From Podarcis cretensis (Eukaryota): DNA of 64,000 bases. The stretch lies in NCBI GenBank assembly GCA_951804945.1, contig OX638156.1:61628001-61692000 (forward strand). The letters run 5' to 3'. The notes beneath the pieces are model-generated. The model was not told the DNA's origin. It worked only from the letters and a program-made list of their open reading frames with translations, and did not search any database. Position 1 is the stretch's first letter; each line of letters opens with the position of its first letter. Positions 5,842 through 63,504 of this stretch are shown piece after piece. Position numbers and translations under genes: made by a program.

Positions 5842-7055
5842 ATATCCTTTGTGTTTCGGAAGTCACCTTGGGCATGTGACTTGACACTTTAACAGTGTGC
5901 CCTGGCTGCACAGGTTTCACCCCAATGTGCACACTATGACTAAAAGGGACACACAAGGCAACGTGAGGTGCCCCTAGGGTGCCCTCAACCCAATGCTGCC
6001 TCAGTTATTTACCCCACACCATCTCTTAACTGGTCTTTCCTGTCTGGACTAACAGCCCAGTAAACTAATAAAACTCAGCACCACTCCAAATGCCATAAAG
6101 CTCCCATAAGTATGACATAGACAAAAAAGAGGAGTCCTGAGGCCAATTAGGGGCTCTCCCCCAAATTCCCACTTGGGTCCCAAAATGGGTAACAACAAAA
6201 GCTCATACCGCATAAGGAGTGAGGGCACTCTGAAGAGAAGACTGGAATATTTGAGGATAAGCAAAACTTTTTTAAAAACAACAACAACAACAAACACTGT
6301 CCCTCTCACCACCTCAATTGACCCACACCTTCACATTGGTCACCACATGACCCTCCCCAGGGTGATATTATATGAATTTCCTTTCCCAGGGGAATCAGGC
6401 TGTGGTAAGTTCACTCCTGCCCAAGTGAGGGATGAGTTTTTTTTATTAAAAAAAAATCTAAATTATCTGGGGAATGGTACAATTTTATTCCTCTGCAGTT
6501 CTGAAAAATGATAGGTTTTGACTGGGTTGTCTTGATTTTTGTGATTTGTAATGTAGTAGCTATTAACTACAAACAAAATCTGACTGACTTTACAAAATAA
6601 ATAAGCTGGAAACTGATACAGAACTATGTCACACTGAATTTCTGCCTTCAAAGAAAAGAGGATATGAGAAAACCCAAAAATGACAGAGTCAACCATCACA
6701 TTGAGGACAATGAGGAAATGTCACTCAAGGGAAGAAAAAAAAAAGCATTCAACGAACGTAAAGGGCACCAAACTACCTTGCAACAATGCAGAGAGCAGGC
6801 AAGGTGATCATCTTTTGTTAGCAATTTCTTCAGCGGTACAGAGGCCACACTCTTATTCCCTGTTATCTGGTATATATGAACCCAGTGAAGCTTTCTTCTG
6901 AATAGACACATCTGCAATCTATATCTATATTTTGCAATGGGTTCTGTCTGTGTGCCTGTCTGTTACTGAAGCCGTTTGCAGGTGCCGTAAGAATTACTGA
7001 CAAGTACACTGGTGCCTTTGGGCACTCTGTTGGTAACCCAGGGTTTAGGCTCTAA

Positions 7056-7391
7056 GGGATGCAGGTGGCGTTGTGGGTTAAACCACAGAGCCTAGGACTT
7101 GCCGATCAGAAGGTCGGCGGTTCGAATCCCTGTGACGGGGTGAGCTCCCGTTGCTCGGTCCCGGCTCCTGCCAACCTAGCAGTTCGAAAGCAGAAAGTGC
7201 AAGTAGATAAATAGGTACCGCTCCAGCGGGAAGGTAAACGGCGTTTCCGTGTGCTGCTCTGGTTCGCCAGAAGCGGCTTAGTCATGCTGGCCACATGACC
7301 CGGAAGCTGCCAATAAAACAAGATGAGCGCCGCAACCCCAGAGTCAGCCACGACTGGACCTAATGGTCAGGGGTCCCTTTACCTTTACCTT
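7056..7391 (+). mobile_element. Sauria SINE, near full length
   Basis: GGTGGCG.TGTGGGTTAAACC head, GGTTCGAATCCC B box, (ACCTTT)n tail; flanked by a 49-bp direct repeat. Confidence 0.92.
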
Positions 7392-17952: not shown

Positions 17953-18148
17953 GGCATTCAAAACATGTGCTTTGACACTGAGTTGTTCCTTCCCTTTTTG
18001 GAGGCTTCCTCACCACAATTTTTCTCCCAACAGTTTTAGTAATGGGGTTCCAACAGTGGTGACTGAACTGGACAGTGTGACTGGTGGGGCAGAGTGCATG
18101 GAGCTCAACAATAGGTGGTGTGGGAGCCAACGGTAAGTGGAACCTATG

Positions 18149-18724
18149 TGTGCTGATCCCGGGGGGAAGGTTACCGTTGGCGTAGTCAAAGTCCGGTCCT
18201 GGGTCACTAGCCTGGAATCAATCCACAAGGAGCAGGGCGAGGTCCGAAGCAGGAAGCCGGGCGGGGACAGGAGCACTGGAGAGTCAGGTCTGGGTCCGGG
18301 CAGGAACAGGTACTCAACAACGACGTTGCTCCCACAACCTGGGACCGGGCCGACTGACCTTTATCTGTTCTGAGGCCAGGGGCGGTCCCGGCCCCTAGGA
18401 GACCCGCCTCTCTTGGCCTTAAGGCGAGCACTCCTCCTGGGAGAAACCAGTTCCCTTCGCCTCTCTGCCCTGAGCCTCTGCAGTTCCGGAGAGGCTAAAG
18501 GGTTACTGGGCCCAGGGGGAGACTCACCTGCAGGCACTGAGTCCTCAACCACCTCTGGAGCCAGAGTGGGATCACCTGGTGCCTGCTCCTGAGGATCTGG
18601 CACAGGTGCAGGCGCTACAGAATCAAGGCCCTGCCCCAGTTCAGCCGGCCCTGGAGGCAGGGACTCCTGTGCAGGCTGGGATTCCTCTGGTTCAGCCTCT
18701 GAATCGGAATCCCAGGCCATCACA
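18149..18724 (-). mobile_element. Solo LTR (576 bp) of an LTR retroelement, probably Gypsy-type
   Basis: TGTG...CACA termini; perfect 5-bp TSD CTATG (18144-18148, 18725-18729); GC/CpG-rich; no gag/pol sequence. Confidence 0.85.
18361..18720 (-). CDS. LTR-internal ORF, 119 aa: acidic/Pro-rich N-terminus, basic C-terminus with PRRSARLKAKR
   Basis: ATG 4 nt inside the LTR 5' end in a good Kozak context (GTGATGG); open to TAA at 18363-18361; expression not shown. Confidence 0.4.
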   Translation of the reverse strand: MAWDSDSEAEPEESQPAQESLPPGPAELGQGLDSVAPAPVPDPQEQAPGDPTLAPEVVEDSVPAGESPPGPSNPLASPELQRLRAERRRELVSPRRSARLKAKRGGSPRGRDRPWPQNR

Positions 18725-19299
18725 CTATGAATTTTTTCTTTCTCTCCATTCTCCTCCATCCTGAGGAGTTCTACAAGGGGAAACATTGAGACTAGAGAAG
18801 AAGCTGACAGGCAGTGCCCACCCACAGGACTGGTTGCAAGTAAAAAGGCAGACTGAGGTTGGTGGGAGCAGAGCTCCATTCACTCTGATGGACCAGACTC
18901 CTTGGGGGTCAGGTATGTGGAAAGGCTTTGCCAGTTTCAGCTGGGCCTTCCCTGTCAGTTTCTGCTGGGCCCTTGAGTGGCCCACGAGACCATCTCAGAT
19001 GCCAAAACAGCACACTTGCGAAAGCAGGGATGTGATGTGCTCAGACTCACCGCATTGTTAAACAGGCCGGCATGTAGTGGCCAGAGGATAGATGTCAGCC
19101 ATATTAAATGGATGTCAAGGAAGAAAGGAGGGATTTCTGACAGGTGCATTTTCCATTGCAAGACTGATTTCTTGATCCTTTATAACTTGAGAGATTGGAA
19201 TCCAAATAGCGGCTTGGCTGTCTCTACTCAACCGTGGCTATTACAGTGCTTTTGTTTCATTGCAAAGAAATGGGAAAATAGATTTCTTATGGTCTTTCT

Positions 19300-21270: not shown

Positions 21271-22146
21271 CATCCAGTGCCGGTCTTTTAGGAGTGCATT
21301 CACAGAGAAGACACACACGCAGAAAAGGGACCTAGTGATCCTCTACAAGGGTTTATTTGTTTACTGCATGCACTAAACCTATGTTTTTTACTCCTCACTT
21401 CCATTACATGACAAAATTGAGACATTTCACAAACTACGAGTGCATTTTCTTTTCCGCTTCAGGAACGACGTGCTGGCTTCTCTTTTGGCCTGAAGTGCAC
21501 CACACCCCACCCTTTTTGTTTTGTCAGATTAAAATCCTTCAAGCAGATCTCTTTCTGGCCCCCCCTGCTCTGAGCCCCTCCATTTTGGTGGCAATCTACT
21601 TTAGTTAATGAAGTGTTGCTCTGAGTTTAATGAAGCCTTTCTGACAGCTGCTTCTCAGTCTTTCAGACCTCAAGTTCTACCACTGATCTCTTTAACAAGC
21701 TGAATTAATAGAAGGGGATTATGCCTGTAGGGATAGTTCAAGAAGGAGTCAGGGCAGGGAGGGAATGCCCACTCCTTCCTTCGATATTCTTGGCAGGTAT
21801 CTCTGGTAGATGGTTGACACCACCTTGTTAGGTGTTCCAGGTAATCCTGTCTCTGTTTATATTCAATTTGCCTAAAGCAAAAAGCCTGCCACTTCAAAGG
21901 CTGCTTGCAAAGGGTTGTTCAGGATGACTGGCAATCATGAGATCATTAGAATTGGAGGCCTAAATGTGAAACTCTTGATAGCCTGATTCAAACTTAGGGA
22001 TTAAAAAAAAAGTTTTATAAATTATGTGTTTTTGTTTCTCAATTTGACCCTTTTACATGGTTTTGTATGTACTGTGGTATTTTACTGAGTGTGACTTGCA
22101 GTTATTTTTATTGATCCTAGTTTAGCAATTATTTATTGTAATTGTT

Positions 22147-22480
22147 GGTGGCGCTGTGGGTTAAACCACAAAGCCTAGGACTTGCTGATCAGAAGGTTGG
22201 CAGTTCGAATCCCCACAACGGGGTGAGCTTCTGTTGCTCGGTCCCTGCTCCTGCCAACCTAGCAGTTCGAAAGCATGTCAAAGTGCAAGTAGATAAATAG
22301 GTACCGCCCTGGCGGGAAGGTAAATGGCGTTTCCGTGCACTGCTCTGGTTTGCCAGCAGTGGCTTAGTCATGCTGGCCACATGACCCAGAAGCTGTACGC
22401 CGGCTCCCTCGGCCAATAAAGCGAGATGAGCGTCACAACCCCAGAGTCGGTCACAACTGGACCTAATGGTCAGGGGCCCC
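22147..22480 (+). mobile_element. Sauria SINE
   Basis: Family sequence; 14-bp TSD TTATTGTAATTGTT (22133-22146, 22481-22494). Confidence 0.92.
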
Positions 22481-22804
22481 TTATTGTAATTGTTAAGAGT
22501 GAATTTCTGTTTAATTATTATTTCCTGAGGTTTTGAGATTTAATTTTATTGTGTACTATTCTATTCCAATAGGTTATTGAATATTACATTATTTGAAATG
22601 TCGTTCCATTTTAAACGTTCATGTTTTCTTATGACTTTTTATATTGGATCAGATCATTATAAGGTGTGCATTCTTTGTTGTATATTTTGTTGCTGTAAAC
22701 CGCCTTGTGAATAGTAATATAAAAAGACAGTATACAAATTAAAAATGAAATGAAATGAGAACTGGGAGCTTCTTCTTTTTTTTGTCACCAAGCACAAGCA
22801 AATG

Positions 22805-29788: not shown

Positions 29789-30693
29789 AATGGCTTTGTT
29801 CATGGATCTCTCTCACATTATGAGGGACTTGGGGGCCGGGCTGTAGTCAGCAGGATCCAATACACTCCTATGAGTACACTTGCAACCAAATATTCTTCTA
29901 CACCCATGATTCAGTCTGACAAGAGGGATTGTCTGATAATATGGTTAACCCCCCCCCCACATCCTCCCCTTGAAATATTATTATACAGTCACTCTGCACC
30001 TAATTTCTTCTTTGACTCCTTCTTTTGAGAGTTTACAAAGCACTCCCAGCGATGATACAGAATCATCTCTACCAGAACAGAAAGTAATTTGGAGAAGTCA
30101 ACGGAATGTTCGCTGGGGTCACCATCCATCAAGCATTCCTCATCCTCTGTCACTATATCAGGCTAGGTAAATACCTGTCAGAAAGTACAGGGCTGCAGAG
30201 TGAGCTTACAGCAGCTCTTGGAAAAGTTCAGGGCAACATTGTTTGTGATCTTTCCCCTCCTTCCCCAGTCTCTCTCTCTCTCCCCCCCCCACACCTTTCA
30301 TCTTCTCCCCAACACGTTTGTCTTGGCGGCGAGCTGTCAAGGCCTGTATTGCAAAGCAGAGATTAACACTAATAGACTATTCCCTTGGCCATTTCAGATT
30401 TTTCTCCCTCCTTTTATTTTGTCTTTTTTTTCTTGGTAGCGAACAAGGTGAAATTGCTTGCCTTGGTTGGCTTCAGGAGCAGGTGAGTTGGGCATTGGGC
30501 TGGGGCCAGAGACGGCAGAAGGGGGTCTATCCTTAGTCCCTGTTGCCATGTCCCCCACTTGGGGTGCCTGTGTGGGCTACGATTCCCCATGCACCCCAGT
30601 AGCAAATATGTGCCATGCAAACTTAATAAATGAGAGGCTCTGTCTGGAGAGCTCATGTGTTGTAGAGTTAAGGGTGGGTAAGCTGTCCAAATA

Positions 30694-31050
30694 GGGACGC
30701 GGGTGGTGCTGTGGGTTAAACCACAGAGCCTAGGACTTGCCGATCAGAAGGTCAGCGGTTCGAATCCCCGTGACGGGGTGAGCTCCTGTTGCTCGGTCCC
30801 TGCTCCTGCCTACCTAGCAGTTTGAAAGCACATCAAAGTGCAAGTAGATAAATAGGTACTGCTCCGGCGGGAAGGTAAACGGCATTTCCGTGTGCTGCTC
30901 TGGTTCGCCAGAAGCGGCTTAGTCATGCTGGCCACATGACCCAGAAGCTGTACGCCGGCTGCCTCGGCCAGTAAAGAGAGATGAGCACCGCAACCCCAGA
31001 GTTGGTCACGACTGGACCTAATGGTCAGGGGTCCCCTTTACCTTTACCTT
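30694..31050 (+). mobile_element. Sauria SINE, full length
   Basis: GGGACGCGGGTGG start, (ACCTTT) tail, 13-bp TSD TAAGCTGTCCAAA (30679-30691, 31051-31063). Confidence 0.93.
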
Positions 31051-35637: not shown

Positions 35638-36463
35638 TGTCAGAGCTGCCTCTAGGTCCCAGCTCACAGAGGACCAACGCTAGGCTGTAGTAATGTACAA
35701 AAGTCTTTATTGAAGTTCAGTTTCCATTTCAAAGCCACAGCGTGCAGCCCTACGTCTTGAACCCTAGATCGGCGAAGTCCCGTCTGAGTCTCCTCCCCTA
35801 TGACACCAGTTTAAGATCCTAGCCCTGCTCCACCTTTTACACTGCTCTCTCCTCCTCTGGGTCCTCCTGCCCGCTGGGGCATTGCCCTTTCTGGACTCTT
35901 CCGACGCTGAGTCACTTAGCTCCTCCCCCTCCCTCCGGCGGGCTTTAGGACCCGGTTCCCAATCCTCATTCTCTGCTGTCCCGCGCTCCTTTACATTTGA
36001 ACTTGCCTCTCGCGCCAACCCAGTGACCTTCCTCCTGACCGTTACACTACTTCTGCCACTGCTTCCCTCTTCCGGGATACTGGCCGGATCTGACCTCCCC
36101 TCCGTTGTCTGACTCTCCGATGGAGGCGTGGTCAGCCCTGACTCCTCTCCTCTCCCTGCTGGGGGAGACGCTACTCCCGATACCTGTGACTCTTCCCCCC
36201 CACTAAGCTCCGGTGGGGAAGCTGGTCCTGATTTCCAACTGCTGCTCTGGGAGTCCCCGCTGGCCCCTTGCTTCTGGGGTGTCCCCCTTGGGACCCCCCT
36301 TGCCCTGGCCACCGACGCCCCCTTCTGTGAATCTTCCGATTCGCTGGAGAGGCTCATGGAATCTCTCGGGCCACTGTCATCTTCTCCTACGCTGCCCTCA
36401 GATTCTTCCCCTTCGCTCTCCATCTCCCCTCTTCCCTGTGCTTCTGCTCCCGAACCCCTGACA
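35638..36463 (-). mobile_element. Solo LTR (826 bp) of a second LTR family
   Basis: TGTCAG...CTGACA termini; minus-strand AATAAA about 70 nt from the 3' end (~35707-35712); sharp GC/CpG step against the flanks; no clean TSD (ACACG vs ATCAC). Confidence 0.72.
35764..36423 (-). CDS. LTR-internal ORF, 219 aa: S/E/G-rich, acidic N-terminus, Arg-rich C-terminus (RRTQRRREQCKRWSRARILNWC)
   Basis: ATG 40 nt inside the LTR in a strong Kozak context (GAGATGG); covers about 80% of the LTR without a stop; expression not shown. Confidence 0.4.
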   Translation of the reverse strand: MESEGEESEGSVGEDDSGPRDSMSLSSESEDSQKGASVARARGVPRGTPQKQGASGDSQSSSWKSGPASPPELSGGEESQVSGVASPPAGRGEESGLTTPPSESQTTEGRSDPASIPEEGSSGRSSVTVRRKVTGLAREASSNVKERGTAENEDWEPGPKARRREGEELSDSASEESRKGNAPAGRRTQRRREQCKRWSRARILNWCHRGGDSDGTSPI

Positions 36464-43612: not shown

Positions 43613-45822
43613 CACTGGGCAACAATTTTTTACTTTTTGAATGTTGTCTAGATTTCTGCAATTGATTTAGGGTATTTTTGCAATGCTGAATCAGGAAATG
43701 GCATCCGTTTCTCTCCATCAGGTCAGGTTTTTGTGCTATGTTGATTTGAAAAAAATCAGATCTTGTGACAAAATTGATTACATTTTTGTGGCATTATCAG
43801 CTGATTTTTGTCAACACATATCATCCTAAATATGTTTTTAAGAGAAAAAAAAATGTTTTCCCAACAACATATATTGATTACATGATAGAAACATCGATTA
43901 CTGTAAACTGAATGGTGGGCTTTGATAAAGGTAAGTACATGTAAATTGCATGTTGCTTCACCATTTTTCTCTCTTCAGAGTCCAACAGTAGTCAGCCATC
44001 ATGACTGCATTCCAGTGACCCTGATACCTGGTCTCCATCTCTTTCATGTCCTGATGGAATCTCTCCCCCTGCTCGTCACTCATTGAACCCAGGTTCTCAG
44101 GAAACCAGTCCATATGTGAAAATAGGTAGTGCATCTTGACACTCATGTTGCAGCCCAGGTTTCTGAAAGCAGTCAGCATGTTGTTGACAAGTTTTGCATA
44201 GTTTTTGGCCTTATTGTTGCCAAGAAAGTTCTTCACTACCAAAACAAATGCCTTCCACGCTTCCAGTTCCACTTCGTTCATTGAGTTTCCAAACTCTGGA
44301 TCTCTGATGAGCTGACGGATCTGAGGACCGTCAAGGATGCCAGCTTTTAACTTCTCCATGGTCAATCCTGGAAAAGCCTGGCACAAGTAAGTGAAGCAGT
44401 CACCATCGTTGTCCAGAGCCTTGGTGAACTGCTTGATTAAGCCAAGCTTGATTTGTAGCGGTGGGAAGAGTATTCTGTCTCTGTCCACCAGAGGGTCGTT
44501 GATGACGTTCCTTTCTTTGCAAGGCACCAATTCCTCCCGCACAGGCCAGTCCTTCTTCGTGTAATGCTGAGCACGGTCCCTACTATCCCACATGCACAGA
44601 AAACATGGGTACTTGGTGAAGCCAGACTGTTGTCCCAACAAAAAGTTCACCATCTTCAGGTCAACACAAATAAACCACTTATGCTGATCATAAACAATTT
44701 TCTCCAGCACTTACTTCACCTCTTCATAGTTCTCCTTCAGTGTAGTCAAGTGAGCCAGGGTTATAGAGGCAAACTGGTTGCCATTGTGCAGCAGAACACA
44801 TTTCAGTGATTGCTTGCTGCTGTCAATGAACAGTCTCCAATCTTTGGGTTCGTACTGTGGCACTCCAAGCTTGAGCAGAAGCTGCGCAATATCTGCACAG
44901 TACACCAAGTCCTTCTCTTCCGAGAAAAAATGTAGGTACTCTTGATGCCTGTTGTGGAAGAAGCTGATGCGAGGACTGTCAGAGAGGAGGTTTCTTTCCT
45001 TCAATCTGGATGCCAACAGTTTGGCAGAGTCCTTTGACAAGCTGAGGTCGCGAACTAGATCATTCAACTCCTTTTGGGAAAATGGATGTGGAGTATCATC
45101 TTCAAGAACCACTTCTTCTTCATGTCCTTCAACACTGGAGGCATCTTTGTCACTAATGTCAGGAAGTTCTCCGAAGATAGGCACTGGAATTTTATCACAA
45201 TGAGCTACAGGACGACGTGCTGATTGAAGATCAGGATACTCGAGGCTGCTCCGGTTCTTTCTGTTGATCCCAGTCACATCAACAGCGCAGAAGTAGCAGT
45301 CAGTGACATGGTTTGTTGGCTCCCTCCAAACCATGGGAATTCCAAAGTTCAGACTCCTCTTGCCATTGGTCCACCCATGTAGAGTCTCAGTGCATGCCTT
45401 GCACACCATGTGTGGCGCCCATGGTTTATCCTGGTCGCCAAGTTTAATACCAAAATAAGCATGGTAAGCAACTTTATGCTTTGCCACACCAATTTATGGA
45501 AGATTTTGAGGTTTTATGACTTCAAACTGATCCCTTTTCAACATAATCACCCAGAACTATCGGACCTGAATACTTCTTGTCATTAAAATAATCATTTCCA
45601 ATCAAAACAATTATTCAACATGGCATTTTACCCCCACCAACTTCTTCTAAAATGCTCCACACAAGCGTACATGTGAACAAAAACGTAAAAAAATGACATG
45701 TGGCCATAGCTCAAAAACTTGACCTGATTGAGCAAAACCAATGTGATTTTTGGATTCAGTGCATCAGATTCATCCTAAATCAACTGAAAAAACGCAGACA
45801 ACAAATTTGTTGTTGACCAGTG
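43613..45822 (-). mobile_element. Chapaev3-type (CMC superfamily) DNA transposon, 2210 bp
   Basis: Termini CACTGGGCAACAA / TTGTTGACCAGTG; TAA TSD (43610-43612, 45823-45825); ~130-bp patchy subterminal inverted similarity; transposase frame inside. Confidence 0.85.
43958..45487 (-). pseudogene. Chapaev3-like DDE transposase with one in-frame TAA (44713-44711) and no ATG start
   Basis: Two abutting in-frame ORFs: LGDQDKPWAPHMVCKAC, PMVWREPTNHVTDCYFC, WRLFIDSS, CVDLKMV, KYPCFLCMWDSR, DGPQIR, SDEQGERFHQD, MMADYCW. Confidence 0.88.
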
Positions 45823-50501: not shown

Positions 50502-50637
50502 NNNNNNNNNNNNNNNNNNNNNNNNNNNNNNNNNNNNNNNNNNNNNNNNNNNNNNNNNNNNNNNNNNNNNNNNNNNNNNNNNNNNNNNNNNNNNNNNNNN
50601 NNNNNNNNNNNNNNNNNNNNNNNNNNNNNNNNNNNNN
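50502..50637. other. Assembly gap (136 N)
   Basis: Run of N. Confidence 1.
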
Positions 50638-61400: not shown

Positions 61401-63110
61401 AATTAAAACGTACAGTAAAACGAGCCCATTAAAACAGCACAGTGAATCGCAGAGGAAGCAGTAGGGATGTCAAATAATCCCATCAGAAACAAAATGGAAC
61501 TAAAATATCCACAATTTGCATGTTCCCCTGAGGTGAGAAACAGAAATCACACACACACACTGAACTGTATTCACTGTTGGGTTATTGTTGTTTTGGTCTG
61601 CTGGTGTTACATAAATGTGTTATTTTCTGCATTTTTTTTGACATTTCCCTTCCATCAAAGTTAATTATGTGATTAATAACATAATTATTTGTGTTAGTTT
61701 CAGCTGTAGCAGACAGCAAGATGAACAACATAGGTTTTAGTAGAAGCCACAGCCCTGATCATGACAAACACAGGACAGAATGGAAATCATTTCCTCCTTA
61801 CATCCCTAGTGAGGAATGTTCAAACTCTGGAAAAGTCCCCCTTCTGGGTCACTGCCCTACAGCAATATGTAGTTTCGTGACTTTTTCTCATCACAGAGTT
61901 GCACTGATGGGAGAATATACAGTCTGCTCTTTTCCCTTCTGCTTAATTCTGCAAATTTAGAAAAGTATTTCCCTTGCATTCCATTAATCATGCTGAGTAC
62001 AAAAAACAGAGGGAATTCTACCTTGTTTTATTCAATATTTGCAATGCAATATTTCCTCTCAAACCCATTTTTTTTCCAAAATTTAACTCTCATGTTCGGT
62101 TCTCTTACCCAATAGGCTTAGAAAAGATGATCTATTTACTCTGCAGAGAGGCACATAAACATCCCTCCCAGGTAAATTAGATTTAAAGTGTAGGTCTGCA
62201 AAAGAGCTTTGATCCATTAACAAATAAATCACCTGGTTTATGAATCCTTTACAGAGCTGACACAAGTTATTTACTGAATTATCATGATATACAGATGGTA
62301 TTTCACTGGTAGTCATAGCTACCTGGACAGGTCAAATATATTTCAATACAGAAGTACAGTGCAAATCGCAAAATTTATTTTAGCGGAGGATCTAGGAGTC
62401 CTAGAGTATTTGTAGGTATATAGCTTTTTTTTAACTGAAAAAATAACAAAACTCATAAAACAATGTGTTACAATCCTAAACACATTTACTAGGGTGCAAG
62501 AGCTATTTAACCCAGTAAGATTTACACACTGGGTTGTATCTAAATAAGATACTTGGAACAGACACCTTGAAATTAATGGCTCTAGTTAATAATGGTGATT
62601 CTTTTAAATGGGAAAACTCTGAACTGGTCTAGCTTTAACTACAGCCCATTGGTTGCACTGACAGAGATGGTTCAGGTGCAACAGAAAGCCATGGTTTAGC
62701 ACCACAACCATCAATTGCCCCAAATTGGAAAAATCTTACAAGGCTTGGACTTTCAGCCTAATTGAAGGAAAGCTACTCTACTAGACAGACATCACCCAAC
62801 AGTGTGGAGTAGGCAAATAGAAGACCCAGATCCAATAAGGGTCTCCCCTCCCAAATTCTTTTGTAGCCCCTAGAAAATGGACGACTAGCCTGTAGGCCCA
62901 CACTGCAAAAGGGGCAGGAGGGTGGATGCTGAATAATAAAGGGGGGGGAGTATGGGGCAGAGCAGGCTTAAATTGCTTGTCATCACCTCTCCCCATTGGG
63001 TGGAATTGCCTGCAGGTAATAACATTTTCCCCTAGGGAGATACCACCTCTCCTTTTCTTCCAGGGTAAAATGGGTATAGCAAATTTGCACACACACACCC
63101 AATCAAGGAA

Positions 63111-63455
63111 GAGACGTGGGTGATGCTGCGGGTTAAACCACAGAGCCTAGGACTTGCTGATCAGAAGGTTGGTGGTTCGAATCCCCGCGACGGGGTGAGC
63201 TCCCGTTGCTCGGTCCCAGCTCCTGCCCACCTAGCAGTTCGAAAGCACATCAAAGTGCAAATAGATAAATAGGTACTGCTCCGGTGGGAAGGTAAAGGCC
63301 ATTTCCGTGCACTGCTCTGGTTTGCCAGAAACGGCTTAGTCATGCTGGCCACATGACCCAGAAGCTGTACGCCGGCTCCCTGGGCCAATAAAGCGAGATG
63401 AGCGCTGCTACCTTAGAGTTGGCCACAGCTGGACCTAATGATCAGGGGTCCCTTT
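63111..63455 (+). mobile_element. Sauria SINE, full length
   Basis: Family sequence; 14-bp TSD ACCCAATCAAGGAA (63097-63110, 63456-63469). Confidence 0.93.
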
Positions 63456-63504
63456 ACCCAATCAAGGAATGTCATTAGCATTAGCTGAAAAAAATTCATT
63501 CATT

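Follow-up and report, generated by a model that had tools for sequence, protein, structure and literature searches.

An HMGN-like motif in the U3 reading frame of a lizard Gypsy chromovirus LTR

Coding sequence that overlaps the U3 region of the 3′ LTR is familiar from MMTV sag and HIV nef, which are separate genes with mRNAs of their own. A different arrangement occurs in plants. According to the accessible parts of two papers (PMC3059260, PMC3605345), the Gag-Pol frame of CRM group A elements extends into the 3′ LTR and carries a candidate targeting segment there, and some beet elements of the Reina clade also extend an ORF into the LTR. For the Tf1/Sushi group of retrotransposons, a self-priming arrangement has been described in the available text of PMC6317226. 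With regard to chromatin binding, cryo-EM resolved RRSAR as the ordered HMGN2 segment on the acidic patch, where two arginines anchor it (PMC12487698). The yeast protein Dot5 binds the same patch through RRSARIAT (PMC13347269); HMGN proteins are thus not the only setting in which the core can function. The accessible portions of these two sources place the HMGN motif in vertebrate HMGNs, tardigrade Dsup and yeast Dot5. A tether to the acidic patch is known in foamy-virus Gag and has been suggested for MLV p12, as far as the available text of PMC9040877 goes.

Here we analyzed a 64,000-nt stretch of the Podarcis cretensis genome (OX638156.1, positions 61,628,001 to 61,692,000; hereafter the window), in which an earlier note had proposed a solo LTR encoding a small HMGN-like accessory protein. 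Our results indicate that the U3 frame of this LTR is very probably the C-terminal tail of Gag-Pol, read via the polypurine tract into the 3′ LTR. Chromatin choice by vertebrate LTR retrotransposons is poorly known beyond the chromodomain, and the tail described here offers a short, selected and testable candidate tether. In the openly accessible literature searched, we found neither a U3-encoded integrase tail nor an HMGN-like motif for squamate retrotransposons; automated public protein records already contain the Pol-U3 read-through.

The solo LTR and its U3 reading frame

The features of the locus are collected in Table 1. A 576-bp LTR with TG..CA ends and a perfect 5-bp TSD had been claimed for 18149–18724, and this was borne out: CTATG stands on either side of the unit, whose sense strand is the minus strand. 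A genome search with the LTR returned 2207 DNA candidates, of which 40 were scored, all 97–100% identical. From the 30 loci kept, 29 could be parsed; a perfect 5-bp TSD was present in 23 of these, the open 119-codon frame in 26 and RRSARL in 24. Among the matches listed, copies are spread over most of the large contigs.

The frame occupies LTR nt 5–364. As had been proposed, the first ATG lies 4 nt into the LTR and opens exactly 119 codons (18720–18364), ending ...RRSARLKAKRGGSPRGRDRPWPQNR; they run beyond the end quoted in the earlier note, to ...WPQNR. The reported coincidence of the stop codon with a TATA-like box was also confirmed, the TAA being placed within AGATAAAGG, and most full-length copies of family A (the family of the window's LTR) have TATAAA instead of GATAAA in the 5′ LTR. 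RRSARL was found inside the interval formerly given for the motif (18409–18441). The basic segment around it, aa 80–119, holds most of a conserved block, ELQRLRxERRRxL...RRSARLxA, and the linker differs in length among subfamilies by multiples of 3 nt. Pfam returned no family for the 119 aa at E ≤ 10, including no HMG14_17, and the best score in the ESM Atlas (0.78) was below the usable level. The nearest public proteins, at 70–85% identity, come from Podarcis wall lizards. Possible use of the donor-like site within U3 is hinted at by a single GT..AG joint, seen in one contig from just one putative RNA run. A 172-aa ORF starting from 18879 was rejected as a chance product, its 53 extra residues being flanking DNA outside the LTR.

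Elsewhere in the window we observed dispersed SINE/LINE-like repeat families (e.g., 7051–7383, 22134–22486, 30689–31041 and 63106–63458) and an N stretch (50502–50637). On the minus strand at 43961–45493 there are two adjoining ORF pieces of 260 and 250 aa without a Pfam match, which we take to resemble a broken DNA-transposon protein.

Table 1. Features of the window discussed in the text (positions are those of the window; −, minus strand)
Feature	Position	Strand	Remarks
Solo LTR, subfamily A1, Gypsy chromovirus of Tf1/Sushi type, TG..CA ends	18149..18724	−	From LTR ends, TSD and two-LTR parents
TSD CTATG, element's 5′ side	18725..18729	.	
TSD CTATG, element's 3′ side	18144..18148	.	
U3 frame, 119 codons + stop; very probably the last part of the parent's Gag-Pol frame, behind the integrase chromodomain	18361..18720	−	
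Acidic Pro-rich linker, aa 1–79	18484..18720	−	17 D/E, 0 K/R, 18 P
Basic C-terminal segment, aa 80–119	18364..18483	−	15 K/R
RRSARL, HMGN-like motif, predicted acidic-patch anchor	18421..18438	−	
TATA-like box GATAAA over the stop codon	18360..18365	−	
Predicted R start and self-primer GTGGGAGCAA, complement of the parent's PBS	18326..18335	−	30 nt past the TATA box
Splice-donor-like CAG/GTGAGT within U3	18522..18530	−	
Second LTR, family F, 826 bp, TGTCAG..CTGACA	35638..36463	−	No perfect TSD

Parent elements and selection on the frame

Full-length parents, which the earlier note had proposed to look for, were found. Scanning for a run of purines ahead of the LTR start yielded 60 matches, and the 30 with a common polypurine tract were fetched; they are mostly ~5.5-kb two-LTR elements with 5-bp TSDs. 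The LTR pairs of full-length copies are mostly 96–99% identical, and A1 pairs with matching TSDs reach 98–99%, which makes the family a young one. We classify the ~5.5-kb parent as a self-priming Gypsy chromovirus of the Tf1/Sushi type. The Gypsy domains, the chromodomain, the self-priming PBS and the lack of env in the ~5.5-kb elements speak against an ERV, and we rejected that origin. One of the 30 parent copies retains a single stop-free frame of 1,544 codons that ends in U3; a GPF/SH3 region and the chromodomain lie in the same frame upstream of the U3 ATG and are joined to it via ...RGGPGRGDGV.

We examined 42 family-A junctions between chromodomain and U3, 4 of which were unscorable. The junction was in phase in 22 of the 38 scorable copies, the commonest class, in which no stop comes between chromodomain and U3 frame; it was shifted by 1–2 nt in the other 16, nearly all at one G run. 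This hotspot is the longest homopolymer in the element and lies ~20 nt upstream of the polypurine tract (L051-L101). A shift at the G run would give an integrase without the tail that stops on reaching the LTR or shortly within it, resembling fish relatives. The deviations go to both sides, which is the pattern slippage would give; they may stem from assembly error, reverse-transcriptase slippage or a regulated switch. The same chromodomain-tail junction was seen in public Podarcis muralis proteins (P0001, P0002, P0004 and P0166), and one P. muralis chain of 1,559 aa has the layout Gag-PR-RT-RH-IN-SH3-chromo-tail. For the public P0166, Pfam gave the order Gag-PR-RT-RH-IN, with PF24626 and PF00385 over the cut-off. 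In a PDB search the chromodomain matched HP1/CBX structures (E 3e-13) with the Y-W-Y cage residues aligned; the search with SH3-chromo-tail yielded chromodomain matches only and none on the tail.

Selection was assessed on 100 U3 sequences, 9 of which were dropped (frameshift, insertion or failure of the motif pattern), while 5 intermediates were left ungrouped. Natural copies (41 A1, 17 A2 and 28 A3) were compared pairwise and within-group differences subtracted; the A3 copies were chosen by protein similarity, which introduces a small bias towards low pN. Net dN/dS was 0.33 (0.18–0.54) for A1-A3, 0.26 (0.12–0.43) for A2-A3 and 0.37 (0.16–0.81) for A1-A2. For the 38-codon motif block we obtained 0.13 (0.04–0.34), and for the linker 0.76 (0.42–1.40) in A1-A3, not distinguishable from neutral, and 0.45 (0.19–0.87). 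Over 53 gap-free codons at 29% nucleotide divergence, in-frame pN/pS was 0.27; the other sense frames gave 1.82 and 1.44 over the same codons, and the antisense frames 1.32, 0.45 and 2.02, the value of 0.45 being a same-phase shadow. Four neutral models, in 1,200 runs, produced mean pN/pS values of 0.74–0.99 with a minimum of 0.36. Depending on the subfamily, the LTR start and the motif are 286, 316 or 352 nt apart, values that differ by multiples of 3. As the low pN/pS is specific to the frame and the length changes keep the phase, we concluded that U3 is protein-coding and under purifying selection between subfamilies. The earlier claim of a protein-coding U3 frame thus stands, with selection, frame and RRSARL persisting across subfamilies, and the signs of preservation that had been suggested for inspection (indels in multiples of 3, dN/dS <1 between subfamilies and a kept RRSARL) were all seen.

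The read-through is shared by other families. Of 150 scored chromodomain loci, 40 were read, 14 of family A and 26 of four other families (B–E), in which Pol also runs via the polypurine tract into U3 and has an acidic linker and an Arg-rich end. Neither a Met at the LTR start nor RR[ST]xR in the Pol frame was found in these 26 loci. A sixth family, F, has the same read-through with a 365-residue tail, no starting Met and no RR[ST]xR. The U3 of its LTR in the window is an open, acidic/basic 231-codon frame without a starting ATG, and of 12 loci read from 543 pattern matches bearing the polypurine tract, 8 were in frame behind a degenerate chromodomain. In-frame pN/pS in U3 was 0.24–0.51 for D/E and 0.37–0.46 for F. 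Families B–F (L089-L120, L216-L227) have lost aromatic-cage residues, whereas family A keeps the Y-W-Y cage. In place of RRSARL, families C–F have an Arg-rich end with a hydrophobic pair and then a Trp behind it (LLxW-like). In an SH3-chromodomain tree of 40 rows, rooted at its midpoint and built without named references, B–F come together in a single supported group that excludes A. The 3′ LTR junctions of family F were seen in dense clusters (G000 C3 6397-52114, 121.83–121.94 Mb; C1 29136-68309, 141.60–141.63 Mb), and some stand ~6.7 kb apart at contig ends, which suggests tandem arrays or strong targeting.

A scorable chromodomain was present in 111 of 120 database proteins, and 31 have tails of at least 60 residues. 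The acidic character recurs in tails from Rhineura, vipers and Naja, and a basic end was seen in Rhineura and the vipers. Most fish relatives stop 15–55 residues past the chromodomain core, whereas squamate elements carry 110–365. To judge from the junction sequence, the database tails probably lie in LTRs. Behind the chromodomain, RRSAR was found in none of the 111 proteins, which come from other reptiles, fish and unnamed sources; given its absence here and from families B–F, the motif is not a general requirement.

The RRSARL motif and its possible function

All four subfamilies, A1–A4, have RRSARL, flanked by residues that vary: the three preceding it and the one following. Copy by copy, it is kept in 36/41 A1, 15/17 A2 and 13/28 of the older A3 sequences, and most of the A3 losses hit the CpG in the last Arg codon. 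Both anchor arginines of the RRS[AS]R core are present in the family-A tail, and the helix before RRSARL is as conserved as the motif. In 200,000 shuffles of the 119 aa, RRSARL arose with a frequency of 1.5e-4 and RRS[AS]R of 2.5e-3; with shuffling limited to the last, basic 40 aa these post-hoc values were 7e-4 and 1.2e-2. A pattern search for RRSARL with a TCN serine gave 5 matches vs. 2 for the control, none of them in such an LTR. The first four motif codons are identical in A1–A4, and about half of the neighboring conserved codons differ synonymously; the invariance makes a constraint at the DNA level possible. The two synonymous motif changes of A4 come from a search that demanded one of them. 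Some of the conservation could be owed to a promoter element, the motif being located ~100 nt before the predicted transcription start. We also noted a chromodomain protein from an unnamed record (P0090) in which RRSARL closes a 108-residue tail. Its grouping with a fungal sequence is weak, and it was retrieved by a search that rewarded RRSARL; it may be an independent occurrence of the motif.

On balance, we lean slightly towards a Gag-Pol tail whose RRSARL would tether the integration complex to the nucleosome acidic patch. We rate an acidic-patch function of the motif somewhat better than even. According to PMC12487698, AlphaFold 3 fails on the HMGN2-nucleosome complex. After proteolytic processing, the integrase would carry the chromodomain, a flexible acidic linker and a basic anchor. 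In this scheme the chromodomain would recognize a methyl-lysine mark, and the two RRSAR arginines would dock into the acidic patch of H2A-H2B in the manner of HMGN2, Dsup and Dot5, so that the complex would be held on chromatin as it is by foamy-virus Gag and MLV p12. The window's solo LTR would be a passive leftover, unexpressed by its own promoter.

The strongest alternative, which we consider unlikely, grants a real Pol tail and takes its basic end for an NLS or a general DNA/RNA-binding patch, the likeness to HMGN being incidental and the constancy of the motif due to a promoter element. It would account for the absence of silent changes from the first four motif codons in A1–A4 and for the other Arg/Lys-rich segments, without RRSAR, in which families B–F and the viper elements end. 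A C-terminal NLS is known for Ty1 integrase (via the accessible part of PMC3605345), and the RRS[AS]R core turned up in 1.2% of the shuffles of the basic 40 aa. Yet the residues flanking the motif change non-synonymously and its six residues do not, and an NLS has no need of Ala, Ser and Leu. Moreover, RRSARLxA matches the HMGN core at seven of eight positions, and P0090, probably a distant chromovirus, ends in the same residues, bearing in mind that its search scored for the motif.

It is improbable that the tail is made in Gag-Pol and then cut off by the element's protease to act as a separate small chromatin tether, similar to MLV p12. A long low-complexity linker does separate the tail from the chromodomain, and in p12 the N-terminal part binds capsid and the C-terminal part chromatin (PMC9040877, available text). 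However, no cleavage site was identified, and once released the peptide would have to be connected to the integration complex by some other means. In favor, the first 15 U3 codons are likewise conserved at the protein level (pN 0.14 vs. pS 0.77), but this could also stem from the att site and the polypurine-tract boundary.

Where transcription begins bears on the separate Nef/Sag-like gene that the earlier note had in mind, i.e., a stand-alone U3 protein made from the ATG at LTR nt 5 via a spliced subgenomic RNA or from solo LTRs. A 10–11-nt PBS, two bases past the 5′ LTR, complements a site inside the LTR in 32 of 40 LTR pairs, and PBS and complement change compensatorily between A1 and A2 and among other families. 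In family A the self-primer site starts at LTR nt 390, 30 nt past the TATA box at nt 360. The complement fixes the orientation, predicts the U3/R border and places the whole frame in U3; together with the TATA spacing, it puts the predicted transcription start near LTR nt 390. The frame being upstream of this predicted start, no expression of it is expected from the promoter of a solo LTR itself; for translation we predict two sources only, the 3′ end of full-length RNA and host transcripts that read through.

Eighteen sequencing runs were guessed to be RNA, with small word shares, and the contigs of four were examined. They cover the whole element and the LTR, in a form from which strand, start and level are not readable. 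The LTR-entering contigs appear to come mostly from unrelated flanks, and among the joints listed for the four putative RNA contig sets there was none into the 3′ LTR. The unique flanks of the window's LTR are left uncovered by these contigs, which give no evidence either way for that copy.

We regard the stand-alone protein as very improbable. Its supposed start has G at −3 and +4 and is found in A1–A4 and in Rhineura, Salvator and Naja records, LTR sequence is abundant in the putative RNA assemblies, and public gene models begin at this ATG (P0003, P0008 and P0009). Against this, the frame is contiguous with Pol and forms the in-frame C-terminus of Gag-Pol behind the chromodomain in full-length elements, and the ATG, at the att-site LTR end, is 385 nt upstream of the predicted start and absent from five families with the same read-through. 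The gene models, moreover, are automated. As a Pol tail, the U3 frame accounts for the gene-like look of solo LTRs and of the automated models derived from them. Of the idea that such a protein is left behind at every solo LTR, the frame being left behind survives and the stand-alone accessory gene does not. As a separate observation, the Podarcis models P0003, P0005, P0008 and P0009 join the U3 ATG to gag or host exons, and P0009 keeps RRSARL.

We give practically no weight to the view that the frame stands open by chance in a young, GC-rich LTR and has no functional product: the copies are indeed young, 16/38 junctions are out of phase and the A1-A3 linker is indistinguishable from neutral, but the in-frame pN/pS lies below all 1,200 neutral simulations, lengths change in multiples of 3 and the same frame-specific signal recurs in D/E and F.

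Significance and comparison with known systems

U3 coding sequence, documented for plant chromoviruses, extends to six families of lizard elements and probably to further squamates. If the acidic-patch tether is real, the range of the HMGN motif extends to a mobile element. Only tentatively do we put forward a joint reading, in which the U3 of squamate Sushi-type retrotransposons would serve as a swappable chromatin-address cassette at the integrase end, with a working HMGN-type anchor, CR-like ends in the sister families and scattered exons. Should this doubtful scheme be true, the combination of an HP1-like chromodomain and an acidic-patch anchor would be the first in a mobile element, the Arg-rich...LLxW end of the cage-less sister families would parallel the plant CR motif, and thousands of solo LTRs would leave a coding exon with a splice donor genome-wide.

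The closest precedent is plant CRM group A. As there, the family-A frame crosses the polypurine tract and ends in a candidate chromatin-targeting segment. Family A, however, keeps a full aromatic-cage chromodomain upstream of the polypurine tract, with the U3 tail added behind it, and it is a vertebrate, self-priming family, whereas CRM primes on tRNA-Met; the two CRM traits of a CR motif in place of the chromodomain and a tRNA-Met PBS are absent from it. With the Tf1/Sushi V-clade (Sushi-ichi type), as described in the accessible parts of PMC6317226 and PMC3601003, family A shares the Gypsy order, the Tf2-like SH3 and chromodomain, the self-priming PBS, TG..CA LTR ends and a 5-bp TSD. Unlike most fish Tf1/Sushi relatives, the squamate elements carry a long tail past the chromodomain. 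From MMTV sag and HIV nef, family A differs in that its U3 frame is contiguous with pol.

Similarly to HMGN, Dsup and Dot5 (PMC12487698 and PMC13347269, available text), the tail has RRSARLxA, both anchor arginines and a disordered charged context beside an acidic region. In contrast to an HMGN protein, it has no HMG14_17 match, its motif lies near the C-terminus of a retrotransposon polyprotein, and binding is here predicted from sequence. Foamy virus Gag CBS and MLV p12 (PMC9040877, accessible text) likewise are short basic polyprotein segments proposed to tether to the nucleosome via the acidic patch. Those tethers are situated in Gag and have other sequences, whereas the candidate tether of family A is located behind the integrase and is encoded in U3.
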